Of a stretch of 64,000 nt of DNA, positions 1-24,004 are shown one piece after another (within the stretch, counting starts at the first letter, position 1; each line of letters begins with the position of its first letter). The notes beneath the pieces were generated by a model, which ran no database searches, had not been told where the DNA came from, and was given only the letters and a program-made list of their open reading frames with translations. Source of the stretch: an uncultured Calditrichaceae bacterium (lineage in GTDB: Bacteria; Calditrichota; Calditrichia; RBG-13-44-9); NCBI GenBank assembly GCA_964452045.1, contig CAYVKM010000004.1:2659-66658 (forward strand), in the 5' to 3' direction. The position numbers and the translations under genes were made by a program.

Positions 1-800
1 TTTGGCAATTCAAATTTCTGGCACCACTCTCTGCTCAAAACACCTGCAATCTGGTCGCTGGTAACAGCCTGGGAATAGAGCCGATTTCTTAAATCGGCAA
101 AATCTGGTGACAAGTGGTGGAGGAATTCCGTATCAGGAAGTCCGCCCCAATCTGGGTGAAACATCGCCTTATGTCCGGCGGCGCAGATATTTCTTTTAAC
201 CTTTCGAACATCATTATTCCCACAGATCAGGGCCGGGATGTAATCGGACAGCTCGAGCCAGGAGTACGCAGTTTTGAAAACTTTGGGGTCGACCTTTAGG
301 CAATGGAAAATTTTAGAAAAAAACCATTCCGAAGAGTAGGCACCCCCGCATTTTTTTAGGTAGGCCGGACGCATTTTGCGCGCCAGGTCAGTAATTTCGG
401 CGGCTTCTGCAGCGGAGGTATGATCCTTCCACAGCCAGGTCTGGGCGTTCAAATTATCTTTGAATTCATCCCGGAATGCCAGCGGGGTAGCTGTTTCATC
501 TACCGGTAGGGGACTGGAACCGGTACCATCTGAACCAATCCCTTTTATATCATCCAAACGAATGCCAACGCTTCTGGCTTTTTTGAGGATCCGGGTGAAG
601 ACCTTTGCAAATGAAACCGAATAATCACCAGGATACTGCCGCGCCAGATGGGGATTTTTGTTATCCAGTAGGACGCCCAATTCACCGCTCTGATAATTCT
701 CGGTTTCACTGACAATTTCCTCACCACTGATCAGATCGAGCAGTAATGCCCGGACGGAATTGGTTCCGAAATCCAGACCAATAGAATAATATGATTTCAT
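1..800 (-). CDS. araB: FGGY-family L-ribulokinase (AraB-like). N-terminal portion only; the C-terminus runs off the window.
   Basis: Reverse-strand translation from ATG at 800-798 gives MKSYYSIGLDFGTNSVRALLLDLISGE. An internal segment AFRDEFKDNLNAQTWLWKDHTSAAEAAEITDLARKMRPAY aligns closely with E. coli AraB ([32 protein letters not shown]). Frame is open to position 1. Confidence 0.8.
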   Translation of the reverse strand, partial: MKSYYSIGLDFGTNSVRALLLDLISGEEIVSETENYQSGELGVLLDNKNPHLARQYPGDYSVSFAKVFTRILKKARSVGIRLDDIKGIGSDGTGSSPLPVDETATPLAFRDEFKDNLNAQTWLWKDHTSAAEAAEITDLARKMRPAYLKKCGGAYSSEWFFSKIFHCLKVDPKVFKTAYSWLELSDYIPALICGNNDVRKVKRNICAAGHKAMFHPDWGGLPDTEFLHHLSPDFADLRNRLYSQAVTSDQIAGVLSREWCQKFELP

Positions 801-808
801 TGTATTTC

Positions 809-1756
809 CTAAATGAATTCCTGTGCGTTACTGGAATCAATTGTCGCGGTTTGCAGGGTTATATTTTTATCTACCGATTCTCCGTTAAGAATTTTCAAGG
901 CCGTCTTGATGGCTTCACCGCCCCCGGTTGGGTAGAGGAAGGTTGCGCTTAGTTCCCCGTTGAGAACGGCCTGTGCTCCGCCTTCCGGACCAGGTAATCC
1001 ATCGATGCCGATGAAGAATATCCCCTGATCCCGATTGGCATTCTTTGCGGCAATATAAGCACCCATGGCCATCGGATCGTTGTGACCATAAACCAGATTT
1101 ATTTTTTCGAACCTTTGCAGGGCATTTTCCATAATTTCTCGTCCTTTGCGCCGCAGCCAAGCGCCATCCTGTTCATAGATAATTTTAATATCCGGATATT
1201 CAGCAATGCCTTTAATAAAACCCTCATGACGTTCGATTGCCGGGGTGGACCCTTTGAGTCCCCAAATCTCTATCACACTTCCTTTTCCGCCAAGTAATTT
1301 TGCTGCGTATTTTCCGGCGGCTTCTCCGATAACTCGGTTATCTGCACCGATAAAACAGGTATATGAGTCCGAAAGGATTTTACGGTCCAGTACAATAACC
1401 GGAATACCTTTAGTAAAAGCTTTTTCAACAACCGCCGTCAGGGGCTGTGCTTCATTGGGGGAAATGATCAATAAATCGATTTCTTTAACAATAAAATTTT
1501 CTACATCAGCGACCTGTTTGGAATTATCCTGCTGGGCGTCTGCTATAATCAATTCAATTTCAGGATGCTGATCTGCCGCTTCCTGCATTTTTTTATTCAT
1601 CGCTTCCCGCCAGGGTTCAGCGCTGTTGCATTGAGAAAATCCAATAATATATTTTTTGTTTTGAGACTTCTGACCGCATGAAATAATATTCATTGCGGTA
1701 AAAATTCCAACGATCAGGATGAGCAGTTTAATTTTCATATTGATTCTCCGCTTCAT
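809..1756 (-). CDS. Periplasmic sugar-binding protein (PBP type I, ribose/arabinose/galactose-binding family). Lipoprotein.
   Basis: 315 aa. N-terminal signal with lipobox-like NIISCGQ. PBP-I fold hallmarks (GFSQCNSAEPW, ADAQQDNSKQ, IGIDGLPGPEGG). No ABC permease or ATPase gene is adjacent. Confidence 0.7.
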   Translation of the reverse strand: MKRRINMKIKLLILIVGIFTAMNIISCGQKSQNKKYIIGFSQCNSAEPWREAMNKKMQEAADQHPEIELIIADAQQDNSKQVADVENFIVKEIDLLIISPNEAQPLTAVVEKAFTKGIPVIVLDRKILSDSYTCFIGADNRVIGEAAGKYAAKLLGGKGSVIEIWGLKGSTPAIERHEGFIKGIAEYPDIKIIYEQDGAWLRRKGREIMENALQRFEKINLVYGHNDPMAMGAYIAAKNANRDQGIFFIGIDGLPGPEGGAQAVLNGELSATFLYPTGGGEAIKTALKILNGESVDKNITLQTATIDSSNAQEFI

Positions 1757-2044
1757 TTAAATGGGATGAACTTTACGCACTGGTAACACAATATTTTCTC
1801 GAGAAACTACGGAAAGATTTTGATAAGAATCTGTGAATTTTCAAAAATACTCAAATTACAGTTTTATAAGAACTTATTACCATAAAATATATAAGTAAAC
1901 AGTCATAAAATCAATATTAAATCCGAAAGTCTGATCTGTCTTAACATTTGTCTGTTTATTATGAAATATTTTCTTTCTATTTACTTGGTATTTAGGTTTT
2001 ATAAATTATTTGTGAACTGAATTGAATGAAGGATCGGTTTAACT

Positions 2045-3019
2045 ATGCAGGATTTTCAGATTATCGTTCCGGGTGGTTTAAATACTGATATAGTTGGGTT
2101 AGGGGTGGAGAGAATTCTGGGACCGGGGGAGTTGACCCTGGGTGGAGAATTAAAAATTGGACCTGGAGGTAAGGCACGGAATATGGCCCAGATGGCTGCC
2201 ACTTACTTGGGAAAAGGTCAAGTGGCGATGATTGGACGGAGCAGCCGCGATCCCTTCGGACTTTGGGAAGTGCCAATTGCCTCCCTTAAAAATGTTGGTG
2301 TTGATATCAGTTTTGTCAAAGTAACCGAATTTAGTGAAAATGGAAATATTTTTCCGGGGATTGCCCTGATTCCAGTGGCCAAAAGCGGGCGAAATCAAAT
2401 TTATGTTTTACCGGGGGTAAACCTGGATTTCAGCCCGGAGGATATTGAGAACGCTTCAATATTATTTCGAAATCCAAGCCGGAAAAAGGTGATGATCCTG
2501 GCCTTGGAAATCCCGCTAGCGACGGCCAAGTCTGCCATCAGGAAAGCTCATGAAAACCATATCCGGATTATCCTGGATCCTGGTGGTATTGAAAAGCCAA
2601 TCGATGATTTGCTGAATGAGAATATCTTTTTAATTAAACCTAATGAGTATGAGGCGGAAATTATTACCGGTATCCGGATCAAGGATTTTGAATCTGCCCG
2701 GCGGTCGGCTCAAAAAATACTCTCCAAAGGTGTACAAAATGTTTTTATCACCCATGGAGATAAAGGCGGATATCTTTTTAATAATCATATTAACCTGATG
2801 ATTCAGATTCCCCAGATTGCAAAAAGCAGAATTCATGATGAGACCGGGTGTGGCGACCAAGTGACCGCTATTTTGGCAGCCTGTCTATCCGAAGACCGAA
2901 GCCTGACTGAATCTGCTGAGATTTCTATTGTAGCCGGTACCCTGCAATTTTACCGGGCCGGGATACAACCGGTAACCCGAACGGACCTAAATAAGTATAT
3001 CGAGACCTCCCAAACATAG
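2045..3019 (+). CDS. PfkB/ribokinase-family carbohydrate kinase
   Basis: 324 aa. N-terminal GGLNTD...GGKARNMA motif and C-terminal DETGCGDQ anion-hole motif typical of the ribokinase/PfkB family. Confidence 0.75.
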   Translation: MQDFQIIVPGGLNTDIVGLGVERILGPGELTLGGELKIGPGGKARNMAQMAATYLGKGQVAMIGRSSRDPFGLWEVPIASLKNVGVDISFVKVTEFSENGNIFPGIALIPVAKSGRNQIYVLPGVNLDFSPEDIENASILFRNPSRKKVMILALEIPLATAKSAIRKAHENHIRIILDPGGIEKPIDDLLNENIFLIKPNEYEAEIITGIRIKDFESARRSAQKILSKGVQNVFITHGDKGGYLFNNHINLMIQIPQIAKSRIHDETGCGDQVTAILAACLSEDRSLTESAEISIVAGTLQFYRAGIQPVTRTDLNKYIETSQT

Positions 3020-3108
3020 ATCTTTGAATGCGTAATATTCGAAAATAATGCTTGATTTTTTCTGTTACCGCTAACATTTTATATTAGTTAAAAGAGAGTC
3101 CTTCACCA

Positions 3109-4656
3109 ATGGAAAATCTCTTTCTGGGCATCGATTCTTCCACCCAAAGTTGTAAAATTATTTGTATCGATTCCGATGAGGGAACGATTGTCTTTCAGGA
3201 TTCGGTAAACTACGACCGGGATTTGCCAGAGTTTGGTACGAAGGACGGCGCTATTCCTTCCCGGGAGCCCGGTGTGTCTGAGGCCGATCCCCGAATGTGG
3301 ATCCGGGCACTGGAATTACTATTTGACCGATTAATAAATATTAAATTTCCGCTGAATTTAATCAAAGCAATTTCTGTCTCCGGGCAGCAGCACGGTCTGG
3401 TTTGTATGGACTCGCAGGGTAATCTTACCCGCAAGACCAGCAAATTATGGAATGATGTTTCCACCAAAGAGGAATGTGAGATTCTGACTGAAGCCGTTGG
3501 TGGCAAACAAGCGATGATCAAGAAAATTGCTAACAGTCAACGACCGGGATATACCGCCAGTAAAATACTAAATTTTTATCACCATGAACCGGAGGCAGCG
3601 GCAAAGACTAAAATATTTTTCCTGGTCCATAACTACCTGAACTGGTTCCTTACCGGCGGGATTGCCCGCATGGAACCGGGGGATGTGTCCGGAATGGCCC
3701 TTTCCTTTCCCGGATCCCACCAGTGGTCGGAAAAAGTCTGCTCGGCCATAGCCCCGGATTTTACCACAAAACTGCCACCAGTACGAAAATCTGATCTGAG
3801 TATCGGTCCAATTTCCGGAAATCTGGTCCAACGATATGGTTTTTCATCCACCTGTCGAATCGATGCAGGTAGTGGTGATAATATGTACGGGGCCATCGGG
3901 ACCGGTAATGTTCGTCCGGGAATTGTTACAATTAGTCTGGGAACCAGCGGTACCGCTTATATCATTCTGGATGAACCCTATGTAGATCCCTTGGGAGAAA
4001 TCGCCCTGTTTTGTGATAGTACCGGTAAATTCATGCCACTGCTTTGTGTCTCAAATATGGCCAATGGTTATAACGATTTATTGCGAATCCATAAATTGGA
4101 TCATGATAAATTTGATCAGTTGCTCAAAAAGACCTCGCCGGGGAACGACGGTAAATTCATCTTCCCCTGGTTTGTCGGGGAACGAACACCGGACCTGCCG
4201 AAAGCCAAACCAATTTTCTGGGGATTTGGTCTGGAGGATTTTCAACTTCAGACCATGTGCCGGGCAGTTCTGGAAGGTCACATTCTGAATTTATTTGATG
4301 GTTATCGGCGCCTGCCGGTGAATTCACGTGAGATCAGATTGACCGGTGGGTTGAGTAATTCTGACAGCTGGTGTCAAACGATTGCCGATATTTTTGATTG
4401 CGAAACTGTACCGGTTAAAGGCGAAGGAGCAGCTCTGGGAGCCGCCTTACACGCAGCCTGGGTTTACTTTAAGGAAAACAACAATCAGGACAGACTAGAT
4501 GAGCTGGTTGACGGATTTGTCATTCTGGATAAAGGTCGCCGAAAAAAACCAGTAAATGCAGGAGCTTATCAGAATTTAAAAAAAGTCTATAGCGAAGCAA
4601 GCCGCCGACTCCGGCAGGGTAGTGGGGATATTGATCCATTCTTACAAGTCTTATAA
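3109..4656 (+). CDS. FGGY-family carbohydrate kinase, xylulokinase-like
   Basis: 515 aa. N-terminal LGIDSSTQSCK phosphate-1 motif and GTSGT motif in the second FGGY domain. Substrate not assignable from sequence. Confidence 0.7.
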   Translation: MENLFLGIDSSTQSCKIICIDSDEGTIVFQDSVNYDRDLPEFGTKDGAIPSREPGVSEADPRMWIRALELLFDRLINIKFPLNLIKAISVSGQQHGLVCMDSQGNLTRKTSKLWNDVSTKEECEILTEAVGGKQAMIKKIANSQRPGYTASKILNFYHHEPEAAAKTKIFFLVHNYLNWFLTGGIARMEPGDVSGMALSFPGSHQWSEKVCSAIAPDFTTKLPPVRKSDLSIGPISGNLVQRYGFSSTCRIDAGSGDNMYGAIGTGNVRPGIVTISLGTSGTAYIILDEPYVDPLGEIALFCDSTGKFMPLLCVSNMANGYNDLLRIHKLDHDKFDQLLKKTSPGNDGKFIFPWFVGERTPDLPKAKPIFWGFGLEDFQLQTMCRAVLEGHILNLFDGYRRLPVNSREIRLTGGLSNSDSWCQTIADIFDCETVPVKGEGAALGAALHAAWVYFKENNNQDRLDELVDGFVILDKGRRKKPVNAGAYQNLKKVYSEASRRLRQGSGDIDPFLQVL

Positions 4657-4679
4657 AGATAAAATAAAGGGAGATATTA

Positions 4680-5222
4680 GTGAAATTATCAGAGGCGAAG
4701 GAATTAAGGGAAAAAACATATCAGATGCTCCGGGAAGCGAATATCGTAATCTCTCCCGAAGAAAGGGCAAATATCGAGATCGCTGATTTTGGACTGGACG
4801 ACATAAACAATATGGGCTTACAGCTGGTGGTGTATGAAAATAATGACCGTTATTGCGCCAAGGAACTAGTACTGTTTCCCCGGCAAACCTGTCCGGAACA
4901 CCGGCATCCGCCATTAAGTCATCAGAACATCGGAAAACAGGAAACCTTTCGGTGTCGTTGGGGTGAGGTATACCTCTATCTGGATGGCGAGCCAACCAAA
5001 GATCCAAAAGCGGTAATTCCTAGGAAATATAAAGATTATTTCCAGGTTTGGAAGGAAATCATTCTAAAACCGGGTGATCAGTTTACTTTGCCTCCCAACA
5101 CCAAGCACTGGTTCCAAGCCGGGGATAATGGGGCGATTGTCTCGGAATTTTCTTCTACCAGCAGCGATGAGATGGACATTTTTACCGATCCGAATATAAA
5201 CCGACTTCCGGTTTACGAATAA
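4680..5222 (+). CDS. D-lyxose/D-mannose ketol-isomerase (cupin, YdaE-like)
   Basis: 180 aa, GTG start preceded by an AGGGAG ribosome-binding site. Aligns with B. subtilis YdaE along almost its full length (RYCAKELVLFPxQTCPEHRHPP...GKQETFRCRxGxVYLY...PPNTKHWFQAG...STSxDxxDIFTDP). Confidence 0.85.
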   Translation: MKLSEAKELREKTYQMLREANIVISPEERANIEIADFGLDDINNMGLQLVVYENNDRYCAKELVLFPRQTCPEHRHPPLSHQNIGKQETFRCRWGEVYLYLDGEPTKDPKAVIPRKYKDYFQVWKEIILKPGDQFTLPPNTKHWFQAGDNGAIVSEFSSTSSDEMDIFTDPNINRLPVYE

Positions 5223-5245
5223 ATCGTTCTATACAGGTTTACTAG

Positions 5246-6415
5246 ATGGAAGAAGAGTGGACAGCAAAAAAAAGGTTTATCGCCGCTTTGGAAAGGCGAA
5301 AGGCGGACCGATTACCCGCAACAACCCACCATGTGATGCCTTATTTTCTGGAAAAATACATGGATGGGATCCCATACCAAAAATTCTTCGATCACTTTGG
5401 ATTGGATCCTATCAATTGGGTGGTTGCCCAGCGACCCAACCAGGAGAATAGCGAATATTATGATCCTACCCAGAAAGAATTTGGTTTTCTGGAACCTCAA
5501 CGTATCTGTTCCGATAATTGGCGAATTAGACCGGAAATTGTCTCCGATCCCGATTATAAGACCATCCTGTACAATATCGAAACACCTCAAAAAACCCTTT
5601 CCATGATCCTGCAAAGTAATAATTACACAACCTGGGTTTCTAAACGTTTGATTGAACAGAAAGGTGACATAGACATCCTGGCCAAGTACGGAACCATGCC
5701 GTTGTGTGATGTGGAAAAGGTTAATACTGAGGCGGTTAAATTTGGTGAGCGTGGATTGATCCGTGGATTTATCCCTGGTTTTGATATTTATGGTCAGTCC
5801 GGTTGCTGGCAGGATGCAGCTGTCCTTTATGGAGTGGAACAGCTCATTATGGAAACTTTCTACGATCCGCAATGGGTGCATGCTTTCATGAAAATTTTGC
5901 AGGAGCGAAAAAGGACTTATTTGGTCTCCATAAAAGGTGCCCGGTTTGATGTGATTGAGCATGGAGGTGGTGACGCCTCTTCTACTGTAATTTCTCCGGA
6001 AATTCTGGAAACCTTTGTCCTGCCATATGATGCAGAACTAACCGACCTGGCGCACCGGATGGGTCAGCGGGTGGTATACCATACCTGTGGTGGCATGATG
6101 CCCTTCCTGGAAATGATTGCGGCCACTAAACCGGATGCGATGGAAACGTTTACGCCATCTTCCATGGGTGGAGATACCGTTCTGAAAGAAGCAAAGCGGA
6201 GAATTGGAAACCGGGTCTGTATGATCGGCGGTTTTGACCAATTTCATTATTTCCAGGATTGCTCTCCGGATGAAACCAGAAAGGCAGTCCGACAATGTTT
6301 TGAGGATGCCGGGGAAGGGGGTGGATTTATTCTAGCTCCCTCGGACCACTTTTTTGATGCTGATACCCAGCTCATCGCAGCCTTTGCTGATGAAGCAAAG
6401 AAATGCCGTTATTGA
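5246..6415 (+). CDS. Uroporphyrinogen-decarboxylase (URO-D)/MtaA-family protein, paralog 1
   Basis: 389 aa. URO-D-like N-terminus (KKRFIAALERRKADRLP). C-terminal HTCGG...GNRVCMIGGFDQ...GGGFILAPS pattern as in MtaA/URO-D TIM barrels. Confidence 0.6.
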   Translation: MEEEWTAKKRFIAALERRKADRLPATTHHVMPYFLEKYMDGIPYQKFFDHFGLDPINWVVAQRPNQENSEYYDPTQKEFGFLEPQRICSDNWRIRPEIVSDPDYKTILYNIETPQKTLSMILQSNNYTTWVSKRLIEQKGDIDILAKYGTMPLCDVEKVNTEAVKFGERGLIRGFIPGFDIYGQSGCWQDAAVLYGVEQLIMETFYDPQWVHAFMKILQERKRTYLVSIKGARFDVIEHGGGDASSTVISPEILETFVLPYDAELTDLAHRMGQRVVYHTCGGMMPFLEMIAATKPDAMETFTPSSMGGDTVLKEAKRRIGNRVCMIGGFDQFHYFQDCSPDETRKAVRQCFEDAGEGGGFILAPSDHFFDADTQLIAAFADEAKKCRY

Positions 6416-6475
6416 AAAATTTTTGATGAGGGTGAACTCTTCCTCCAAAACATACCCTAGTGTTAGTAAACTAGT

Positions 6476-7651
6476 TTGATTCAAAATAATATTACCATGA
6501 AAAAAATTATTGAGATTGCCGTACCTATTGAAGAAATTGAGAAACGCAAGGAAAGAGTCACCCGGGCAAAGAACTTTCAAACACCGGACCGGGTACCGGT
6601 TATTCCGGCGATTGCCCATCGTTTTCTGGTGCCGCAGGTTGGTGTAAAATTTCGGGATTATTATGACGATCCGGAAACCATGCTGCGTACCCAGATTTTG
6701 GCGCAAAAATGGCTCCTGGAAAATATCAGGACCGATGCCTATAGCATTACTGGTGCCTGGGTAGGTGCCTGGACAGATTTTCAAAATTCTTTTGAGGCGG
6801 GAAGCCTTGGATGTGAGGTGGTTTTTCCGGAGAATGATATTCCCTGGGTCGGAGAAAGTTGGGTTAAAGAGGATCGGGATCTGAAAAAACTGGAAGCATT
6901 CGATTTCGTCCATACCGGTTTGAATGCCCGCCAGATTAACTACCGGAATCAAATGATTGAAGTTGCTGAGAAATATCCGGTTCGGTTCCAGGGAGGCGAA
7001 GTGTTTTATCCCGGAGAAACTCCCAACCTTACCCATACCTCGGACGGACCTTTTGGCGTGGCTGGAGATGTGATGGGAATAACTGAAATTTTTACTGCAG
7101 TATCCGAACGACCTGATTTTGTAAGGGAAGTTATGCGAATCGTGACGGATAAATTGATTGAATATCTGGATTTCTGCTGGGAGGAAGAAGGTTTGTCGGT
7201 GCCAAAGGATTTTGCCTGGACTGATGATCTGGCAGTTTCGCTTTCCGAGGAGATGTACCGGGATCTGGTTCTACCATTTGAAAAAAAATTGCGTTTCAAT
7301 TTTGATGGTTACTTAAGCTTGCATATGTGCGGTAAGTCAGATCACTTGTTAAAAACATTCCGCGACGAACTGCAGATTCATGAGCTTCAGGGATTCGGTT
7401 ACCAGGTGGATCTGGATTATATTGCCTCAGTGATGGGTGGAAAGGTAGTTCTTATCGGTAATGTCGATCCAATGTTGATTCATTCCGGAACCCCGGATGA
7501 AGTGATGGAAGCCTCCCGGAAAGTGATCGAGAAACTGTCACCTTTCAAGGGATTTATCCTGCAGGATGGGAATAACATTCCGCCCGGCACACCCATCGAT
7601 AATATAAACGCCATGATGGAGGCAGCAGAAAAATATGGCGTTTTTGAATAA
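6476..7651 (+). CDS. URO-D/MtaA-family protein, paralog 2
   Basis: 391 aa. TPDRVPVIPA N-terminal motif, LHMCGKSDHLL motif, C-terminal GNVDP...ILQDGNNIPPGTP. Confidence 0.6.
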   Translation: MIQNNITMKKIIEIAVPIEEIEKRKERVTRAKNFQTPDRVPVIPAIAHRFLVPQVGVKFRDYYDDPETMLRTQILAQKWLLENIRTDAYSITGAWVGAWTDFQNSFEAGSLGCEVVFPENDIPWVGESWVKEDRDLKKLEAFDFVHTGLNARQINYRNQMIEVAEKYPVRFQGGEVFYPGETPNLTHTSDGPFGVAGDVMGITEIFTAVSERPDFVREVMRIVTDKLIEYLDFCWEEEGLSVPKDFAWTDDLAVSLSEEMYRDLVLPFEKKLRFNFDGYLSLHMCGKSDHLLKTFRDELQIHELQGFGYQVDLDYIASVMGGKVVLIGNVDPMLIHSGTPDEVMEASRKVIEKLSPFKGFILQDGNNIPPGTPIDNINAMMEAAEKYGVFE

Positions 7652-7690
7652 AAGCAGTTTTAAGGCAAACATCAGGATTTTCTTCCAAGA

Positions 7691-8815: not shown

Positions 8816-8816
8816 A

Positions 8817-11216: not shown

Positions 11217-11218
11217 TC

Positions 11219-16500: not shown

Positions 16501-17071
16501 GATTGGTAATCCGGATTGCCAGCAGATTAGCTGCCCCCGGCAATACTACTTTGCTGATATCGCAGCTAAATGAAGTCTCAGTAATAATGTGATAACCCAC
16601 TAATTTCTGATTAAGGTATACCTCGGCCCGTAATCGGGCGTCCCGGATGTGTAAAATTATTTTTTTATTGGCATACTCATTTGGTATCTGCATTTTCTGC
16701 CACCACCAGGAAACTCCCTTGTAATATCCATTTTTAACCTGAGGATCTTCCTGTTCGAAATAGTATTCGTTATCATAAGGCTGAAAACCGAACTTTCCCC
16801 AATAATATTGTTCAACAGTGGCTGGCAGGGTCACTGGTATACCGATCTTTTCATTGAGAACTTCCCACCCACCGGTTGGCATGTTTACCGGTAGCTGGTC
16901 AAGCTCAAATTCACCGGGAAGGAAAATGTCATCATTTTGCCAGATGGCTGCAGTGTCCGGCCATAATCGCCAGTTGTTATCAGGAATATCGAGCCGATCC
17001 CCTGCGCGGCTGAAAGTTGGGTTCATCATTATAAGACAGAAAAAAAGTAATAAGTTGATATAGAATTTCAT
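13544..17071 (-). CDS. Secreted multidomain glycoside hydrolase (GH2-like, clan GH-A) with malectin-like carbohydrate-binding module(s)
   Basis: 1175 aa. Signal peptide MKFYINLLLFFCLIMMNPTFSRA. GH2-type N-terminal sugar-binding region. TIM barrel with an ...YTIQNEINPD acid/base-like motif. INCGGESYTDKNGLVWG matches the malectin signature. Confidence 0.6.
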   Translation of the reverse strand: MKFYINLLLFFCLIMMNPTFSRAGDRLDIPDNNWRLWPDTAAIWQNDDIFLPGEFELDQLPVNMPTGGWEVLNEKIGIPVTLPATVEQYYWGKFGFQPYDNEYYFEQEDPQVKNGYYKGVSWWWQKMQIPNEYANKKIILHIRDARLRAEVYLNQKLVGYHIITETSFSCDISKVVLPGAANLLAIRITNPGGEMDWVDTRMHKWGKYQFHMGHGFGGLDRGIFITAHDPVYLENVAVLNTPDIKTIRVRGMIQNEVSDAFNGELHFEVTDPQNGEKLTSRKEKVEIAAGKNLEFESSIICPGAEIWSLDNPKLYEVRVSFTGNSRKNKKKFTDTYHQTFGFRWFEAGGIGKNAVLRLNGNRIRLVSAISWGFWGFNGLWPTPELAEKEVLAAKAFGMNCIQFHRNIGKAEVLNAQDRLGLLRYMEPGGGQTAFGEEFSLYANSPEDNIDISGKDGEPGTFAEKYMEEKIIRMIRDHRGHPSLIMYTIQNEINPDLHNPRIFHLLKRVHAEDPSRIIVLKSGIPPRNQAWMQPYDDTIYLDRGDGYSGWWDQHTVGGPGVWQDPMYKDMKDFTHHSENDSEIVVWGEMLGAAVPDNHPAMIQQIKDNGNQSYDLQDHQEILQAYNSFLDKWKFRTAFPTTEKLFLNIGDKCYDFWGRVIETARLSESNDFLVISGWESTAIENHSGLVDNLRNFKGNPELLKKRLELLHPFIKPRSLVVSLGQPDTLDLYLLNETGKPHPKGFRLTITDPDGTEIKSNQFALSDWQKDRFVYPIEISVITPELTKEGFYDLKLSAIDNQTVFGEEKILVVDQFPDLAGNVSIGVLTHEPEFINELNNFPGVKAEAYQKSGIYDLLIASTRLLYGWRSVVDSTREIANTDDDRLFHTESWGYWRNLEYVFTDLPRGTAKVTLRLAEVTLKNPGDRVMNMAINGDTVLKDFDIVKTVGGPNIALDTSFVVNDPDGVVKITVPKLTVNYAKFSAIKVEAGDSVIAINCGGESYTDKNGLVWGVYGQKLNLDDEVLSRVKSGLPLLVLPDGHEAADAYGKKLGEAGAFNYLGHVGNVRASWMGAWFFVREHPVFDGMPVNQAMKSYYQVPVSGSDGLLLEGQNVDVFVGYGRDHDRNIGAASFTTKLGKGKILWHSLPGMVTGLQQPGKGMQPVLLRRLLANSIKSLMD

Positions 17072-17211
17072 GGTCTTGACCTTTCAATTCGTCAAAATTA
17101 TTCATACCAGATCAAAGGACAGTTCATCCCTGATATATATCTTTAAAAAAAATCAACTGGTAAAATCTATTTATTTAAATGCCACGATTTATTCGATTAA
17201 AGAGACGAGGT

Positions 17212-17625
17212 TTAAAAAATTACACCGGCAACCAATATTAAATTAGCGAATGGGGTGGCTTCTCCGGTACGAACAAAGGCAATATTATGGGTCTCCCGGG
17301 TAATTTGCTTAATTTGTTCGTGACTGATTTTTTGGATCGGCACATCAGGTACAGTTTTCTGAAGTAAATCTTCTAGTGCTTTGTAATAATGAGGTGAGCG
17401 CTTTTCCATTTCAACGGTGATGATAATTTTTTCAACCTGGAGCTCCTGAAGAATTACCTGAAGCACATCCAGAAAACGAGGCAAATTGGGTGTAACAGCC
17501 AGGTCAACTAGTTCTTTTCCATAAGGAATAGGCAGTCCGCTATCCGCAATCACCAGAAAATCCCCGTGACCCATTCGGGCAATTACCTTGGATAACGGAG
17601 CATTTAACAATGCTGTTTTTTTCAT
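17212..17625 (-). CDS. rbsD: RbsD/FucU-family sugar mutarotase/pyranase
   Basis: 137 aa. MKKTALLNAPLSKVIARMGHGDFLVIADSGLPIP closely matches the RbsD N-terminus. Confidence 0.8.
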   Translation of the reverse strand: MKKTALLNAPLSKVIARMGHGDFLVIADSGLPIPYGKELVDLAVTPNLPRFLDVLQVILQELQVEKIIITVEMEKRSPHYYKALEDLLQKTVPDVPIQKISHEQIKQITRETHNIAFVRTGEATPFANLILVAGVIF

Positions 17626-17650
17626 AGCACTATCTCTCTATATATCCTTT

Positions 17651-20098
17651 TTAGATTTCCGAAATCAGATCAACTTCACGCCATTTACCCTTTTTTTGAA
17701 TCCGGATAGTCTTTATTTCAAGAGGTGCGAAATTTAGTTTTATTTCAACCTCCGGATATTGAATTCTGATTTGAGAAATGGTATTTCTGCCGCTGGTCTC
17801 TTGAAGTCTCATAATAAGTGAGTTTTTATCCCCCGATGGTTTCAGGGAGGTAAGTCGGATATTCTGCGGAGAAAGTTTCAAAAAATCAGATTGATCAACA
17901 GGCTCCTTTATTTTCCACAACTTTCTATTTTTGGTGAATGATCCCATGGGAAGGTGAGCATAGGCCAGGGGAGGGGCAGCCAACCAGTCTGCCAGGGCGG
18001 TTATTTTTGTAAAAACATTATTTTTGGTACCCGTGGTCAGCGCGAGACGGATTTCATGTTTCCCCTGATCCATATACTTCCGGGCTGGATATTGCTCCAG
18101 CTTGAATCCCTGCTCATGGCAGTAAGCTGCACTTCTGAGCACCGATAATTCAAGAATCCCATCTTTGAGTTCCAACCCGTGCAGACCATTATGAACAATT
18201 CCCAGAGCCGTATCTTTTCCTTTGATTTTATTTGAAAGTAGAACCCATCGGCCATGAACATGGATATCCCCATCTGCTGGACGTGTAATTACGCCACCGG
18301 GAATTTCACACAATATATCCCTTTTCTTGAATACTGTTGGAATAATCAATTTAAGTCTTTTTCTCTCCTCCAGCCAAAAAACGCTTAGTCGAAATTCTAA
18401 TACGGACCATTTACTATAGGAAATCGTATGCAGGACAATACTGCTGTTATTGTATCGCAAGATTGATTCGTGAATGGTTCTTACCGGTCCCTGCTCAACA
18501 ACCCGGATGCTTTCCAGGTCGGCATGAAATTCCCCGATACGATTCGGAAAGCTACGACAACCCGTTCCCCAGGAATCGGCTTTGTCTTCAAAGACCACTG
18601 GTTGCAGTAATTCCCCCTTAAGTATTGGTATTTCCTTCTGAAGGTAGATCTGCTTTATCAAACCTGTAGTACGATTCAGCCTGAAATTTATAGTTGGTTT
18701 CTCCAGAACCGGTTTTTTGTGACCTTCGGTTAGTTTAACTGAATAATGTCTGACGCCAAGCGCAGGAAGTTTATCCAGGAAAGAAATTTTCCGTCGCCAA
18801 CTGTTGAAGGGTAATAGCGCTTCCGGTTGTTCCTCTTGGCAGATAATTTTACCCCCCTCTGAATTATACAATTCCACATGCCATTTACCACTCCATTTGG
18901 GCCGTTGGGAGATCATAAATTCCACTTCAACCGGTACCAAGTCCAATCCGGGATTTGTGTTAACAACCGTAATGGGGAGGTATTCATTTTTTCTTTTACC
19001 ACGGTTAAAGCAGACTGCGGCTTTCAAGTCCATTTCCCGGATTGCATTTTCAGATTCACCATAAAGGTTCAAGGCATCCTTCTCGGCTGGCTCGGTGCAG
19101 GAACCGGGAAGTATGTCATGAAAATCGTTGAACAGATGAGAATGCCAAACACTCTCGATTTTTTTGTGGGGGAATTTATATCCATATAACCACCAGGTAA
19201 CAGTACGAAGTGTTTCTGCCTGAATTAATTTTTGTAAGTTTTGATTGGCAGCTCTTTTCAGACGCGACAAGGATGTATAGCAACCGGTAAATACCCGTTG
19301 TAAATCTCCACGGAAGACGGGAGCATTTTGTCCATATTCCTTTATGGATTCATAAAAATAATCGGGTGTGCTATGAAGGATATTTACCCTGTACTCTTTT
19401 GCCCGAAATTCTTCTATTATCTCCAGATCTTCTCTGGTAGCCCCACCGCCATGATTTCCGATCCCCCAAAATACCGGTACATTTCTGTTTAATTTAATGG
19501 CAAGCTCAACCCCTTGTTCCAGACGCTGGATTATATTATCAAACTCGGTATGGTAAAGTCCTACGGAAATCCGGTAGGTAAGAATCTTGCTTCCATCCAC
19601 GCCCTCCCACCAGTATAAATCTGCTGACAGCTGTAAATCTTCCTCTTGCGGCCGCATATGGATATACATTTCGTATCCGCTCTTTTTCAGGATCTGGGGT
19701 AAACCACCCCCGTGTCCGAATGAATCAAAGTTGTAAGCGACGCGCGGAGAAACATTAAAATTTTTTTGAAAATATTTCCTGCCCACTTGAATATGTCGGA
19801 TAATGGATTCAATACCCGGCAAATTAACATCCGGCTGGAGATACCATCCACCACTGATAAACCATTTTCCTTTCCGGACGAGTTTTTGAATTTCCCTAAA
19901 AAGTGCTCGATCATATTTTTGAACCCATTGATAAAGAATAGCTTCGTTGTGGTTAAATATGAGTTCATTGCTCTCCTTAAGCAAGGTAACTGCATTCGTG
20001 AAAGTTGCCAGTGTCTCCGAGGCACCCTCTTCCCATCTCCATTGCCAGACCGGATCCAGATGAGCATTGCAGATAAGGTGAAGTGAAGGTTTTTTCAT
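17651..20098 (-). CDS. Glycoside hydrolase family 38 alpha-mannosidase
   Basis: 815 aa. N-terminal HLICNAHLDPVWQWRWEE metal-binding motif and NFDSFGHGGGLPQIL, both typical of GH38 (MngB-like). Confidence 0.8.
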   Translation of the reverse strand: MKKPSLHLICNAHLDPVWQWRWEEGASETLATFTNAVTLLKESNELIFNHNEAILYQWVQKYDRALFREIQKLVRKGKWFISGGWYLQPDVNLPGIESIIRHIQVGRKYFQKNFNVSPRVAYNFDSFGHGGGLPQILKKSGYEMYIHMRPQEEDLQLSADLYWWEGVDGSKILTYRISVGLYHTEFDNIIQRLEQGVELAIKLNRNVPVFWGIGNHGGGATREDLEIIEEFRAKEYRVNILHSTPDYFYESIKEYGQNAPVFRGDLQRVFTGCYTSLSRLKRAANQNLQKLIQAETLRTVTWWLYGYKFPHKKIESVWHSHLFNDFHDILPGSCTEPAEKDALNLYGESENAIREMDLKAAVCFNRGKRKNEYLPITVVNTNPGLDLVPVEVEFMISQRPKWSGKWHVELYNSEGGKIICQEEQPEALLPFNSWRRKISFLDKLPALGVRHYSVKLTEGHKKPVLEKPTINFRLNRTTGLIKQIYLQKEIPILKGELLQPVVFEDKADSWGTGCRSFPNRIGEFHADLESIRVVEQGPVRTIHESILRYNNSSIVLHTISYSKWSVLEFRLSVFWLEERKRLKLIIPTVFKKRDILCEIPGGVITRPADGDIHVHGRWVLLSNKIKGKDTALGIVHNGLHGLELKDGILELSVLRSAAYCHEQGFKLEQYPARKYMDQGKHEIRLALTTGTKNNVFTKITALADWLAAPPLAYAHLPMGSFTKNRKLWKIKEPVDQSDFLKLSPQNIRLTSLKPSGDKNSLIMRLQETSGRNTISQIRIQYPEVEIKLNFAPLEIKTIRIQKKGKWREVDLISEI

Positions 20099-20115
20099 AA
20101 TGGAATTCTCGCTGA

Positions 20116-21876
20116 TTAAACCTCTTCCGGTGAGGGAAGTTTTTTATACCAGGTAAAGTAAAGGAAAACACCCATTATTGCGAAAACAAACACCCATGTA
20201 ATCATGTTTTTCCACTGCCGGAGAAATAGAAAAAAGGGAATAAGAGCCAATGAAACCTGAAATATTGCCGTCAGGAATCCGTTAAGTATATCAAATTTGG
20301 GCATTGGATCTTTCACTGGTATTAATCCCCGTTTTTCAGCTTCCAGACGGACTGGTTTCCAGAAACCGAAGGGCCGGACTCTACTGTAAAATTTTAGCAA
20401 AGTCTCCATATTGGTTGGTTTAAATACAAATCCTGATATCAGAGAGATTATTACAGAAGAGATTGTGTCGAAGGAAAGGGATAGTTGGGCGGACCAGGAA
20501 TTAAAAAATAGTTTTTGGACAAGTATTACAACCGCGGAAAAGATCATACTCCAGACAAAGGCTTTGGCACTGAATCGCCACCAGTGCCAGCGCATCGTTG
20601 CCGGAGCTAAAATCATTGTCACTACGACAAAAATCATGGTTTCCCAGGCCGAAACGATATCCTTAAAATAGAGGCTGAATATAAAGGCAAGGGTTATGGC
20701 AAATATCGAGGCAATCTGACCTAATCGCACCAATTGTTTCTGTCCCAGGTTTTTGGTAAAGTAACGCTTCAAAAAATCGTTGGTAACCACGGAGCTGGTT
20801 ACATTCACCATGGCGCTAAGAGTAGACATGAGGGCGGCCAGCAATATTGCCATAAAGAGACCGCTTAAACCGATGGGCAATTTTTTCAAAACCAGAGGCA
20901 TTATTTTTTCCGCATCAAATCCGGCCTCGTTTCCGAGATAATAAATTCCCAGAATAAGAAAGGCACACCCGATTATCCACCGAAGCGTATACCCCACGGT
21001 CCACATTCCGGCAGCAAGTGAAGCATCCCTGGGACTTCGGGTAGTGAGAAAAAATTGAAAATCCCACACATTCGGTCCGGCCAGAACCCTGAAAATAAGC
21101 CAGGCAAATCCTGCCAGAAGAATGGTTCCAAAATCATTGTAATGTTGATAGGCAGCGGGGGTATCGGAAAGATAAGATGGCCAGAGTTTCCACACTGGTG
21201 CCAGTGAGCTCCATCCGGGATTCTTGCCGATTAAAAAATCAGTTCCCGAACCGGTGTTGAAGGCCATCACCCCAAGTATAATTGCACCAATAGCAATTAG
21301 TAACGTCTGGAATACATCGGTCAGGATTACCCCGATAAATCCGCCCAGGGTTACGTAGATACCAACCACCCCAAATACAAGTAGCGCAGATTGCCATCGG
21401 CCAAAGGGTAGAAACTCTTCAGCAAATTTTCCGGTGCCCACTGCCATGAACATGAGGTTAAAGATCATCAGGACCAATAAGAATGTTGCAGCAGCAATTC
21501 GGGCATATTCTGCATCACGGTCTGTTCCAAAGCGTGTTTCGTTCCATTCGGCAAAGGTCATTACACCGGAGCGCCGGATGTATTTGGCCTGGAATGCCAT
21601 ATAGAAGCATATGATTAACCAGCCCCAAAAGATGTGGGTTATCCAGATAGATTTTAGCCCGAGGTAGAACATTGCCCCAACCAAGGCCATCGTTCCACCA
21701 ATATCAATATAACTTGAGCAACCGGAAAGTCCGAGCATCCACCAAGGCACATTCCGACCGGCAAGATAATACCCGTCAAGGTGTTGAGTAGCCCGTTTTT
21801 GTACCCAAAACCCAATGAACGCCACAAAAATAAGGTATAAAGTGATAATCCCAAGATCGATCCAATGCATCTGCAT
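20116..21876 (-). CDS. Sodium:solute symporter (SSS family) transporter
   Basis: 586 aa, about 13 predicted TM segments. SSS-like YLAGRNVPWWMLGLS N-terminal region. Confidence 0.75.
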   Translation of the reverse strand: MQMHWIDLGIITLYLIFVAFIGFWVQKRATQHLDGYYLAGRNVPWWMLGLSGCSSYIDIGGTMALVGAMFYLGLKSIWITHIFWGWLIICFYMAFQAKYIRRSGVMTFAEWNETRFGTDRDAEYARIAAATFLLVLMIFNLMFMAVGTGKFAEEFLPFGRWQSALLVFGVVGIYVTLGGFIGVILTDVFQTLLIAIGAIILGVMAFNTGSGTDFLIGKNPGWSSLAPVWKLWPSYLSDTPAAYQHYNDFGTILLAGFAWLIFRVLAGPNVWDFQFFLTTRSPRDASLAAGMWTVGYTLRWIIGCAFLILGIYYLGNEAGFDAEKIMPLVLKKLPIGLSGLFMAILLAALMSTLSAMVNVTSSVVTNDFLKRYFTKNLGQKQLVRLGQIASIFAITLAFIFSLYFKDIVSAWETMIFVVVTMILAPATMRWHWWRFSAKAFVWSMIFSAVVILVQKLFFNSWSAQLSLSFDTISSVIISLISGFVFKPTNMETLLKFYSRVRPFGFWKPVRLEAEKRGLIPVKDPMPKFDILNGFLTAIFQVSLALIPFFLFLRQWKNMITWVFVFAIMGVFLYFTWYKKLPSPEEV

Positions 21877-21972
21877 AATAATATTATTCCTCGATTTTGA
21901 AATTCAGGCGGTTACCCGACTAATTCTTTAGTTGAATTACAATTTTTCTAAAATATACAATGTATGCATTTC

Positions 21973-22776
21973 TCATTTGTTTGTGGGCGGCCAATTTTCG
22001 CAGCCCTTGAAGGGCATATGTTGTCCCTCGACATATTTTGGAAATGCCTTATACTCATTTATTCCAGGTAAAAATTTTCCTCGTAAGAGCATAACACAAG
22101 GCCAGCTTTCCTCTGTCACCTGCGTTGAGGTTGGAATATAGCGAATGGTTAATCCCCGCCGCCACATATCAGAATCGTTGGCCTTTGAGCCGTGGATAAC
22201 ATTGGGATGATGAATGGAAATATCCCCGGGATTAAGAATTATGTCAACCGCTCTGGATTCATCGACCAGGGTTTCATCCATGGCAGATTCCAATACATTT
22301 GGAATATCGTGACGTTCTTTTAATTTTTGAAGATCCAGATGATGCGTTTGGGGAATAACTCTCATGCAGCCATTTGCCGGAATAGATGGATCGATTGCCA
22401 ACCACAGGGTAATTACACTCATTGGTTTTAAAGGCCAGTAACTACCATCCTGGTGCCAGAGCACAGCTTGTCCATCTTTAGGAGGTTTACAGATGTAATG
22501 GGATGCAAATAAAGCGATATCCGGGCCGATAAATTTCTCGGCGACGTCCAGTAATCGGTTATCACTAATCACCCGGACCCAAAAGGGTGAGCCCATTATT
22601 AAAGTATGATGCAGTTGTTCGGGACGGGTTCCCGGGTGCGTCTTCAGCAGCCAGTCCACGTGATTTATATTTTCCTGGATTAATTCAGGATCAAGAACAT
22701 TGCGGATAATCACGTATCCCTGTTGTTCATAGGTACTTTTTACGCCTTTGAGAGATTTCATAAAATCAAATTCCAC
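21973..22776 (-). CDS. Phytanoyl-CoA dioxygenase (PhyH)-family Fe(II)/2-oxoglutarate oxygenase
   Basis: 267 aa. WHQDGSYW (HxD facial-triad region) and IHHPNVIHGSKAN distal His. Confidence 0.7.
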   Translation of the reverse strand: MEFDFMKSLKGVKSTYEQQGYVIIRNVLDPELIQENINHVDWLLKTHPGTRPEQLHHTLIMGSPFWVRVISDNRLLDVAEKFIGPDIALFASHYICKPPKDGQAVLWHQDGSYWPLKPMSVITLWLAIDPSIPANGCMRVIPQTHHLDLQKLKERHDIPNVLESAMDETLVDESRAVDIILNPGDISIHHPNVIHGSKANDSDMWRRGLTIRYIPTSTQVTEESWPCVMLLRGKFLPGINEYKAFPKYVEGQHMPFKGCENWPPTNK

Positions 22777-22972
22777 GGAATTTTCCTTTGCCGGATTTTG
22801 TGTGAGAATTTTTTTGGTTATGAATCCAGTAAATTAAAATGTGTTCGGGCATATTTGTTTTGTATCGTCGATCAGTTTAGCAGAAAGGGTGTTAGCGTTA
22901 ACATGAAACTGAAAACAATATAAACATTAATTAAATAAATGTCAAAATTCATTTACCATTTTAACAATATTT

Positions 22973-24004
22973 CTAATTGTATTGACGGTATGCCAGAGCC
23001 ACTTCTTCAGGAGATTTGTCGATCATGGTCTCCAGATGATATTTTTCGAAAAAAGTGACATCGTTTCGGTAAAAGTTGGTAACAGCGGGACGGGTACAGA
23101 TTCTTAAAAAACTGGGAAATCGTGTCTGAAGCTTTGTATTCATGGGTGGTGAAAAGAGAACAATATTAAAACTGTTGTGTTCTATCTTATGATAAAACTG
23201 GAAGACTTTTTGGATCCCTTCCGCCAGATTTTTTAAAGTGTGTTCTGAGAGATCAGGATATCCTTTTCCATTCCCGATAATTGCGCAGACCTCATTAAAA
23301 CCCATAGGTGCGAAAGGGGTGTAGAAAAAGCAATCATCCAGTTCAAAAAGAAACCGATCGTTTTCTTTTTCCATGGTTTTTAATTTTTCCCAAAAATTTA
23401 CTTTGTACTTTTGCTGAAATTTTTTTGAATTGATAAGCACACCCCGGTGGTAATTAGTTGGAATAGGGTCGAGAAAAGGTTGCAAATGAGGGTGCAAGAT
23501 ACTGCTTCCTGCGGGCAAAAGATAATTACCATTCAGAGAAGGATATAGTTTTTGCTGATCCGATTCACCTACTATTGCAAAATAACTTTGACAGGCCTTT
23601 AATGCATCCAGGATCTGGTTCACGGTGAATTCATTAATCGCTATAAAATGTCTTTTGGAAAAAATACAAACAGCGCTGTATGCACCAAATCCTGATAAAT
23701 TGGGAAATAGAAAGGCCTCTCCGACCTCAATTCTACCTTTTTCATAAATATCTTGAGGTATCATGGGAGTGGTTGTCTCCACCTTCCCGGAGCAGAAAAA
23801 ACAGGGTTTTGCCTCACTTACAAACTGCTTTAGGGGATCGTCATCCGGAATTTTGTCCAGACCCTTAGGTTTACTAATACGCATTGTTCTTCCGGTAAGC
23901 GGATCCCAGCGGATTTCAATCTTTTCTTCGGTAAGTTCAAAATTCTTTAGCGGATTCCTGATTCTGGCAGTAATAAATTCCTTTTTGAATTCGATCGGCT
24001 TCAT
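22973..24004 (-). CDS. GalT-like HIT-superfamily hexose-1-phosphate nucleotidyltransferase
   Basis: 343 aa. RWDPLTGRTMRIS (GalT N-terminal region), CFFCSG (Zn-site CxxC) and ILHPHLQ (HPHxQ active-site motif). Confidence 0.55.
   Translation of the reverse strand: MKPIEFKKEFITARIRNPLKNFELTEEKIEIRWDPLTGRTMRISKPKGLDKIPDDDPLKQFVSEAKPCFFCSGKVETTTPMIPQDIYEKGRIEVGEAFLFPNLSGFGAYSAVCIFSKRHFIAINEFTVNQILDALKACQSYFAIVGESDQQKLYPSLNGNYLLPAGSSILHPHLQPFLDPIPTNYHRGVLINSKKFQQKYKVNFWEKLKTMEKENDRFLFELDDCFFYTPFAPMGFNEVCAIIGNGKGYPDLSEHTLKNLAEGIQKVFQFYHKIEHNSFNIVLFSPPMNTKLQTRFPSFLRICTRPAVTNFYRNDVTFFEKYHLETMIDKSPEEVALAYRQYN

Follow-up and report, generated by a model that had tools for sequence, protein, structure and literature searches.

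What might four genes of the uroporphyrinogen decarboxylase (URO-D)/MtaA superfamily contribute to a locus for the breakdown of glycans? This question is raised by a 64-kb stretch of DNA from an uncultured Calditrichaceae bacterium (contig CAYVKM010000004.1), referred to here as the window, whose positions 1 to approximately 21900 cover the right-hand portion of a conserved catabolic locus belonging to a Calditrichia-like anaerobe. A preliminary description of positions 1 to 24004 had presented the region as a coherent locus for glucose-capped, mannose-rich N-glycans. Pfam, NCBIfam, and Protein Data Bank (PDB) searches recovered all of the genes that it named, i.e., those for glycoside hydrolases (GHs) of family 38 (GH38), family 31 (GH31), and family 2 with a malectin domain (GH2-malectin), an isomerase, an RbsD protein, a sodium:solute symporter (SSS), and several sugar kinases. 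However, the inventory omitted eight genes, including all four of the URO-D-like genes, which we designate UD1 to UD4 in map order.

All coordinates are positions in the window. The gene map is based on a listing of open reading frames (ORFs), Pfam and NCBIfam scans, and PDB sequence searches. Statements about Pfam and NCBIfam domains cover ORFs of at least 100 amino acids (aa), and signal peptides were called directly from the protein sequences. Loci with UD2 orthologs, all of them metagenome assembled, are referred to as sister loci and carry L numbers. Gene content, protein families, synteny across phyla, the distribution of a corrinoid module, and the local absence of regulators were read directly from these data.

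Three of the URO-D-like genes are consecutive on the plus strand: UD1 (5246-6415), UD2 (6476-7651), and UD3 (7691-8815). They are preceded by a gene for a cupin-type D-lyxose(/D-mannose) ketol-isomerase (4680-5222; plus strand) and followed by the GH31 gene (8817-11216, with the longest ORF beginning at 8745; plus strand). UD4 (12419-13420) is on the minus strand. UD2 orthologs with 63 to 81% identity were found in 49 distinct loci from Calditrichia, Ignavibacteria/Melioribacter, Anaerolineae, Aminicenantes, Planctomycetaceae, Spirochaetia, Eubacteriales, and one Bathyarchaeia bin. The orthogroup corresponds to approximately one full-length cluster in a 50%-identity library of 1.84 billion representatives. 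Such identity across approximately eight phyla plus an archaeal bin is unusual for a catabolic enzyme. This conservation suggests horizontal spread of UD2 together with strong constraint.

The neighbors of UD2 are conserved as well. UD3 was immediately downstream in 29 of 44 loci, and a GH31 gene was no more than 2.5 kb downstream in 21 of 38. Among the UD2 loci, the cupin gene was present in 23, UD1 in 19, and GH38 in 19. The conserved core order is cupin-UD1-UD2-UD3-GH31, often accompanied by GH38, GH2-malectin, and SSS genes. Almost the whole arrangement of the window is repeated in two Melioribacter-type loci (L022 and L038) and in L144, in the order RbsD-cupin-UD1-UD2-UD3-GH31, with GH2-malectin, GH38, and SSS coming next on the other strand. 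Aminicenantes hold a minimal unit of cupin-UD2-UD3-GH31. Long ORFs in Aminicenantes had the appearance of a UD3-GH31 fusion, a candidate that was rejected when they proved to be two genes in different reading frames. The recurrence of the same gene set in the same order across phyla agrees with the earlier description of the locus as coherent and catabolic, and indicates that its genes form one functional unit.

All four UD proteins passed the Pfam URO-D threshold (71.8 bits for UD1, 67.9 for UD3, and 186.9 for UD4), and all scored below the cutoff of the more specific MtaA/CmuA model TIGR01463 (cutoff of 235.4 bits; UD4, 135.7; UD2, 78.8; UD1, 54.5; UD3, 48.6). Scores against the HemE model TIGR01464 (cutoff of 303) were 78 bits for UD4 and 37 for UD2, with UD1 and UD3 not among the matches listed. 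UD4, a homolog of MtaA-like methyltransferases, aligned to MtaA (PDB entry 4AY7) over approximately 280 residues with the HxC...C zinc motif intact. The distal cysteine ligand of this motif, within GCD in UD4, is retained in UD4 only. The HxCG portion is invariant in all four paralogs and in 44 UD2 orthologs, reading YHTCGG in UD1 and HSCG in UD3. Sequence matches of UD2 to the PDB were weak, the best being the chloromethane methyltransferase CdmB and MtaA. The predicted structure of UD2 (confidence score [pLDDT] of 90.7) matched MtaA best (TMt of 0.75) and UroD next. UD1, a very divergent member of the superfamily, and UD3, also divergent, had essentially no match to solved structures in the PDB sequence search. 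The URO-D-like genes are both the least understood and the most conserved part of the locus. Among the members of the UroD superfamily are the proteins that serve as substrate-specific methyltransferases in anaerobic O-demethylases and dehalogenases, and some of these proteins bind zinc (PMC13222342). UD2 in its fold and UD4 in its zinc motif resemble the methylcobamide:coenzyme M methyltransferases MtaA, MtbA, and MtsA, with the difference that the host of the locus is not a methanogen and gives no sign of coenzyme M.

The sister loci provide a possible link between the UD proteins and methyl transfer. In all five of the other Calditrichia loci that cover the interval between the xylulokinase-like gene (xylB) and the cupin gene (L009, L010, L011, L012, and L015), this interval encodes a corrinoid protein and a MetH-type activation domain (Met_synt_B12); in L009 it spans 5633-7991. 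The same position in L144 holds a corrinoid protein gene and then a 205-aa gene that lacks a Pfam tag and matches the activation-domain profile. In the Ignavibacteria loci L007, L020, L026, and L038, the pair of corrinoid and activation genes is just upstream of the UD genes. The module was found in 10 distinct sister loci, five from Calditrichia and five from Ignavibacteria. The corrinoid proteins are small and consist of B12-binding_2 and B12-binding domains, and in L009 and L038 there is, in addition, an S-methyltransferase domain of the homocysteine type (S-methyl_trans). Judged by their domains, these components would constitute a methionine-synthase-like methyl relay without the folate domain, to which the UD proteins would be the obvious methyl donors.

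Because the corrinoid module adjoins the UD genes in all of the Calditrichia and Ignavibacteria sister loci that cover the position, demethylation is the best explanation for the UD genes. Specifically, the UD proteins may carry out corrinoid-dependent demethylation of methylated sugars that the glycosidases release, a reading to which we give slightly less than an even chance. UD1, UD2, and UD3 would be substrate-specific methyl-sugar:corrinoid methyltransferases, and UD4 would transfer the corrinoid-bound methyl group to a thiol, a step that the homocysteine S-methyltransferase could perform in some sister loci. In this way, methyl groups would be stripped, independently of oxygen, from sugars that are otherwise closed to the isomerases and kinases. 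We are more doubtful of the further proposal that UD1 to UD3 are the first enzymes for O2-independent, corrinoid-dependent O-demethylation of sugars, with the methyl group passing to homocysteine or another thiol. Equally tentative example substrates are 2-O-methyl-xylose and 3-O-methyl-mannose, which the neighboring GH31 and GH38 enzymes would set free.

Several observations weigh against corrinoid-dependent demethylation. In the window only 23 nucleotides (nt; 4657-4679) separate xylB from the cupin gene, and no corrinoid protein, MetH activation, S-methyltransferase, or DUF455 domain was found anywhere in the 64 kb, even at an E value of ≤10. Comparison with the sister loci indicates that this copy has cleanly lost the corrinoid and MetH-activation genes, as well as the S-methyltransferase present in L009. 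If the UD proteins do demethylate sugars, this copy may borrow a corrinoid protein from elsewhere in the genome, or it may work without one. No corrinoid protein was found within 10 kb of the UD2 genes of Aminicenantes, Planctomycetes, Spirochaetes, or Anaerolineae. UD2 and UD3 may not need a corrinoid, because the UD2 loci of several phyla are without it. The protein sequences raise a second difficulty. In UD2, Gln and Asn replace the Glu and Cys zinc ligands of MtaA, so that two of the four ligands are lost, and UD1 to UD3 scored only 15 to 28 bits against PDB entries, very far from characterized enzymes. There is also a chemical difficulty. Known corrinoid O-demethylases use aryl methyl ethers, and the aliphatic ethers of sugars are chemically harder to cleave. 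Finally, demethylation provides no source of lyxose and leaves unexplained that the gene accompanying UD2 and UD3 most faithfully is that of a lyxose-type isomerase.

The Anaerolineae loci fit corrinoid-dependent demethylation only loosely, because there DUF455, in some cases together with a ferredoxin, takes the place of the corrinoid module. One or two DUF455 (ferritin-like) proteins are encoded in L005, L016, L027, L028, L031, L033, L035, L047, L051, and L142, and some Anaerolineae loci add a 2Fe-2S ferredoxin, an ABC sugar transporter, a GH38 of another subfamily, or a GntR-PBP regulator. The DUF455 set may serve as an oxygen-dependent equivalent of the corrinoid module. Neither the corrinoid module nor DUF455 is present in the UD2 loci of Aminicenantes, Planctomycetes, and Spirochaetes.

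The distribution of the module gives weight to a serious rival, namely, that an as yet unknown reaction of UD2 and UD3 that does not involve methyl groups makes the substrate of the isomerase. UD1 to UD3 would then be cofactor-free or metal-dependent TIM barrels that convert sugars, for example by decarboxylating a uronic acid to a pentose or by cleaving another substituent, and so yield D-lyxose or D-xylose for the isomerases. The corrinoid module of the Calditrichia and Ignavibacteria (FCB) loci would be an accessory. The extreme divergence of UD1 to UD3 would fit such a role, as would the occurrence of cupin-UD2-UD3-GH31 without a corrinoid protein in Aminicenantes and other phyla, a lack that the window shares. 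The founding member of the superfamily is itself a cofactor-free decarboxylase. In addition, the closest relative of the cupin is an isomerase specific for D-lyxose, and we know of no abundant natural source of D-lyxose. However, the invariant HxCG is the zinc motif of MtaA rather than the catalytic motif of UroD, the top matches of UD2 in both fold and sequence are methyltransferases, and the corrinoid module is within the operon in 10 loci. Nor do we know of a precedent for nonoxidative decarboxylation of uronates. On balance, we consider this explanation fairly unlikely.

Corrinoid-dependent demethylation of sugars would differ from the systems already described. The three-component corrinoid O-demethylases MtvABC, OdmABD, and VdmABD of acetogens, archaeal Mto, and the chloromethane system CdmBCA also employ a UroD-superfamily methyltransferase I (PMC13222342). 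The sister loci resemble them further in encoding a small corrinoid protein and a second methyltransferase that takes the methyl group from cobalt. In contrast, the known systems act on aryl methyl ethers or halomethanes rather than on sugars. They rely on a pterin-type methyltransferase II with tetrahydrofolate and on an ATP-dependent activator, whereas the UD loci have a MetH-type activation domain and, as partners, a homocysteine-type S-methyltransferase or an MtaA-like protein. The genes of the UD loci are, moreover, inside a glycoside hydrolase operon. A functional analogy is provided by the porphyran loci of marine Bacteroidetes, in which, as reportedly found by Reisky et al. in 2018, a P450 oxidatively demethylates 6-O-methyl-galactose. 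There too a demethylase is part of a glycan locus, but its chemistry depends on O2 and the protein families are unrelated, so that no homology is implied. Full-text literature searches found no published description of URO-D-like genes in glycoside hydrolase loci and none of corrinoid-dependent sugar demethylation, and a search for DUF455 likewise returned nothing relevant.

A variant of demethylation is that the UD proteins act on S-methyl sugars, such as 5-methylthio-pentoses, rather than on O-methyl sugars. MtsA-type URO-D enzymes handle methyl thioethers with zinc, and the locus has genes of a ribose type, i.e., those for RbsD, a PfkB kinase, and an RbsB-like binding protein. Related MtaA-like clusters have also been tied to methyl-sulfur and methyl-selenium metabolism. 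These type 1 mlp clusters, which are widespread in nonmethanogens, combine MtaA-like and corrinoid proteins in a gene set that is different from that of the UD loci, and the role proposed for them by Kountz and Balskus is the handling of methyl-sulfur or methyl-selenium compounds, with no mention of sugars or glycoside hydrolases (PMC10418091). The tight linkage in the UD loci is to GH31, GH38, and GH2, not to nucleosidases or methionine salvage, and the locus has no route for the thio-sugar that would result. Thus, S-methyl sugars are a remote prospect as substrates.

The identity of the glycosidases bears on which sugars the UD proteins might encounter. The GH31 had been read in the light of the N-glycan-trimming alpha-glucosidases that its family includes, but it is of the YicI alpha-xylosidase type, an outcome that the preliminary description had itself named beforehand as refuting its reading. 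The protein scored 429 bits to the alpha-xylosidase YicI of Escherichia coli over approximately 610 residues versus approximately 200 bits to glucosidase II of the endoplasmic reticulum. It was 1.6 bits under the cutoff of 606 for the NCBIfam alpha-xylosidase equivalog NF007940 (604.4). The catalytic residues are kept (YKTDFGED at YicI D416, which is within KTDFGE, and CWSGD at D482, within WGGD), and the nucleophile and acid/base motifs are conserved in 21 orthologs. The C307/F308 pair, which in YicI is said to set the preference for xylose over glucose (Okuyama and coworkers, in 2006), corresponds to Thr329/Trp330 in GH31, with the Trp conserved in 21 orthologs. In YicI, Cys307 and Phe308 exclude the C6 hydroxymethyl group. 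The -1 pocket of GH31 therefore appears to be xylosidase-like but not identical, because Thr/Trp replaces C307/F308. The Thr/Trp pair, in which aromatic character is retained, could fit a pentose as well as a 6-deoxy or modified sugar. Like GH31, YicI of the yicI-yicJ alpha-xyloside operon is cytoplasmic and paired with a cation symporter; unlike yicI, the GH31 gene is part of a far larger locus. The longest GH31 ORF, from 8745, overlaps UD3 by 71 nt, and the ATG at 8817, the likely start, is one base past the UD3 stop codon. Translation from 8817 gives a protein of 799 aa, the length of the gene called in L146, a relative with 89% identity. The agreement with that gene call implies that UD3 and GH31 are probably translationally coupled.

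A YicI-like GH31 could also belong to an ordinary hemicellulose locus, for example for xyloglucan side chains, in which an alpha-xylosidase and a beta-galactosidase act, xylose is converted to xylulose-5-phosphate and the UD genes are either passengers or devoted to methionine or cofactor metabolism. The presence of a xylose-isomerase-like enzyme and XylB would suit this explanation, as would a GH2 whose nearest relatives are beta-galactosidases and beta-glucuronidases. However, the UD genes are the tightest-linked partners of GH31 in eight phyla and are in the same operon, and because of this linkage they are not likely to be passengers. A Pfam scan of the ORFs in the locus found no endo-xyloglucanase, beta-glucosidase, or fucosidase, and GH38 and the lyxose isomerase would be left unexplained. 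These considerations make a conventional hemicellulose locus distinctly unlikely.

The remaining glycosidases are encoded on the minus strand. The GH38 gene (17651-20098) encodes a protein with all three GH38 Pfam domains (N-terminal, middle, and C-terminal domains, 175.2, 58.8, and 49.9 bits, respectively, versus cutoffs of 25, 31.1, and 25) and can be assigned to the alpha-mannosidase family on this basis. It matched PDB entry 7UFS and the Ams1 class at 155 bits, distant from characterized members. The GH2-like hydrolase (13544-17071) exceeded the Pfam cutoff for Glyco_hydro_2 (31.6 versus 23 bits) and fell just short of those for GH2_N (27.5 versus 28) and GH2_C (19.2 versus 21). Its nearest named relatives, beta-galactosidases and beta-glucuronidases, were weak matches in NCBIfam and PDB searches, and its best PDB relative scored 75 bits. 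It carries one malectin/CBM57-type domain (PF11721; residues 870-972; 61.9 bits versus a cutoff of 23). Signal peptides are present in the GH2 protein and a sugar-binding lipoprotein but absent from GH31 and GH38. GH31 and GH38 cleavage is therefore expected to be cytoplasmic, on imported fragments.

These assignments leave little room for the import and degradation of glucose-capped high-mannose N-glycans, with GH31 trimming the glucose, malectin recognizing it, and GH38 removing mannose. GH38 is present and is located beside UD genes in 19 related loci, GH2 does have a Malectin Pfam domain, and the lyxose/mannose isomerase together with PfkB could route mannose to fructose-6-phosphate. However, GH31 is of the YicI type, with the clade motif KTDFGE and Trp in place of F308. 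The domain that had been taken as a sign of binding to glucosylated high-mannose glycans, PF11721, is a generic carbohydrate-binding module that is widespread on bacterial enzymes with varied targets and thus not evidence for such binding. None of the hallmark N-glycan enzymes, i.e., GH18 or GH85 endo-beta-N-acetylglucosaminidases, GH92, GH125, GH130, GH20 hexosaminidases, or beta-mannosidases, was found among the ORFs of positions 1 to 30 kb. N-glycan degradation also provides no role for the four URO-D-like genes, the xylose-isomerase-like gene, the xylulokinase, or RbsD, and we consider N-glycans a highly improbable substrate.

The enzymes for the released sugars include two isomerases. The cupin matched the Thermofilum D-lyxose isomerase TsLI (7NZO) at 262 bits over residues 6 to 177 and B. 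subtilis YdaE (2Y0O) at 218 bits, and scored 34.1 bits against Pfam Lyx_isomer (cutoff of 20.8). It resembles the group I cupin D-lyxose isomerases (TsLI, the Dictyoglomus enzyme, and YdaE) over its full length, with the metal-binding motifs EHRHP and HWFQAG aligned. TsLI, its closest characterized relative, is specific for D-lyxose; related enzymes also take mannose (PMC8378251). The second, a xylose-isomerase-like TIM barrel (11219-12358; plus strand), is, by its scores of 69.6 bits against TIGR02631 (cutoff of 447) and approximately 52 bits to PDB xylose isomerases, a distant relative only of class I xylose isomerase; its orthologs bear the precomputed Pfam tag AP_endonuc_2. The RbsD-type sugar pyranase (17212-17625; minus strand) scored 159 bits against the D-ribose pyranase equivalog NF008761, above its cutoff of 93.

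There are three sugar kinases, consistent with the several that had been described. The PfkB-family, ribokinase-like kinase (2045-3019; plus strand) scored 120 bits in Pfam and 162 against TIGR02152 (cutoff of 300). The XylB-like FGGY kinase (3109-4656; plus strand) is a probable xylulokinase, with 354.8 bits against TIGR01312 (cutoff of 380). A second FGGY-family kinase, ribulokinase-like, is cut by the left edge of the window, leaving its N-terminal 256 codons (1-768; minus strand), as seen in the six-frame translation. Its orthologs of 557 to 563 aa occupy the same position in L009, L010, L012, and L144. The SSS symporter (20116-21876; minus strand; Pfam SSF, 116 bits), a probable importer of glycosides or oligosaccharides, has orthologs in L022, L024, and L060.

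From these assignments we infer the substrates and the direction of flow. The secreted GH2-malectin enzyme would trim an extracellular glycan, and fragments with alpha-xylosyl-type and alpha-mannosyl-type residues would be imported by the SSS symporter, possibly with the help of the orphan binding protein. In the cytoplasm, the alpha-xylosidase-like GH31 and the alpha-mannosidase-like GH38 would cleave these fragments from their ends. The freed sugars, demethylated where necessary if the UD proteins have that role, would be isomerized by the D-lyxose/D-mannose isomerase and the xylose-isomerase-like enzyme and phosphorylated by XylB, PfkB, and the second FGGY kinase to xylulose-5-phosphate and fructose-6-phosphate. 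We have high confidence in the framework of glycosidases and kinases, which derives from family assignments and synteny. Both a mannoside branch, from GH38 through the lyxose/mannose isomerase to a kinase, and a pentose branch, from GH31 through the xylose-isomerase-like enzyme and XylB to xylulose-5-phosphate, are plausible. Thus, the mannose and pentose routes previously suggested are acceptable by family, but glucose-capped N-glycans are unsupported as their source.

As reported earlier, positions 1 to 24004 encode no transcription factor: no helix-turn-helix, ROK, or response regulator domain was found, and gaps between genes are no longer than 288 nt. This absence is weak evidence, because the locus is truncated on the left, the sister loci are also without a regulator, and the Anaerolineae loci carry GntR-PBP. 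No regulator was found within 10 kb of the Calditrichia and Ignavibacteria sister loci, or near the relatives of the left-edge FGGY kinase in the three syntenic loci among 80 related metagenome loci. The regulator of the Anaerolineae versions is of the GntR type with a sugar-binding domain.

The divergent AT-rich intergenic region (288 nt; 1757-2044) had been proposed to contain an operator. The GTCTG repeats and the TAAACAG/CTGTTTA inverted repeat do exist, but they are not above chance and are not conserved in six orthologous regions. GTCTG occurs at 1929 and 1950; its 97 occurrences in the window lead to an expectation of approximately 0.44 per 288 nt (Poisson P of approximately 0.07). The inverted repeat (arms at 1896-1905 and 1949-1958) is only one among the 19 inverted-repeat pairs of this AT-rich region. 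The only block conserved across six related loci is 1884-1921, which includes a predicted sigma-70-like promoter for the binding-protein gene (TTGATT-17-TATATT; 1914..1886, minus strand). One arm of the inverted repeat falls in the nonconserved spacer of this promoter, and the stretch with GTCTG is not conserved. An exact 10-mer, GGGATGAACT, at 1763-1772, with its reverse complement within 17072-17211, is common to the leaders of the binding-protein and GH2 genes. It was rejected as a shared operator because its orientation relative to the two genes is opposite and its occurrence is at chance level. In Rfam searches for the cobalamin riboswitch and other RNA elements, neither the window nor any of four sister loci gave a match.

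The boundaries of the locus differ from those first drawn at 1 and 24004. On the left, it runs past the edge of the window; sister loci have another GH2 gene after the FGGY kinase. Scanning metagenome contigs for exact matches to positions 1 to 44 gave no extension in this direction. Between this kinase and the divergent region is the gene for the binding protein, an orphan RbsB/YtfQ-like lipoprotein (809-1756; minus strand; Peripla_BP_4, 174.5 bits in Pfam; NCBIfam YtfQ and RbsB below cutoff) with a signal peptide and Cys and with no ABC permease or ATPase gene alongside. The lipoprotein and FGGY kinase genes are still adjacent in L062 (8343-11686), in an unrelated glycoside hydrolase setting with GH113, an MGH1-like hydrolase, and ABC permeases. 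Such a permease-less pair of binding protein and kinase is odd and could conceivably have a role in sensing.

On the right, the last two genes before position 24004 are outside the conserved locus, with no counterpart in any related locus. The first (21973-22776; minus strand) encodes a PhyH-family Fe(II)/2-oxoglutarate dioxygenase (Pfam, 115 bits). The second (22973-24004; minus strand) encodes a protein of 343 aa for which Pfam, NCBIfam, and PDB sequence searches gave no match and whose predicted structure (pLDDT of 91.9) folds like GalT and ADP-glucose phosphorylase (TM of 0.6 to 0.7). Cys67, Cys70, His170, and His172, a Cys pair plus HxH, are invariant. Approximately 80 relatives of the protein are known, mostly from Calditrichia metagenomes. 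The modeled fold suggests that the protein may represent an undescribed branch of sugar-1-phosphate nucleotidyltransferases or phosphorylases. This gene is followed by purM and housekeeping genes. The rest of the window includes selA and selB (32002-35405; plus strand), whose presence implies that the organism makes selenoproteins, consistent with an anaerobic lifestyle. It also includes a complete-looking dcw cluster from mraZ to ftsZ (44781-61971; plus strand), in which the penicillin-binding protein has a PASTA domain. GC content falls to 0.31 at 38001-40000, versus approximately 0.42 elsewhere, in a segment that includes a 135-aa ORF (39017-39424) without a Pfam match.

The glycans of plants, algae, fungi, and bacteria commonly contain methylated sugars, which block the usual isomerases and kinases. 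To our knowledge, the only demethylation route for such sugars is the P450 system, which requires O2. The operon described here is a testable candidate for the missing anaerobic route. Even if the UD proteins are not demethylases, the extreme conservation of UD2 and its constant association with GH31 are still signs of a sugar chemistry yet to be described. If they are, the operon would represent an undescribed and widespread pathway in anaerobes of sediments and digesters that would explain how methylated glycans are mineralized without oxygen, and it would provide a first function for many metagenome genes now labeled "uroporphyrinogen decarboxylase family" or "hypothetical."

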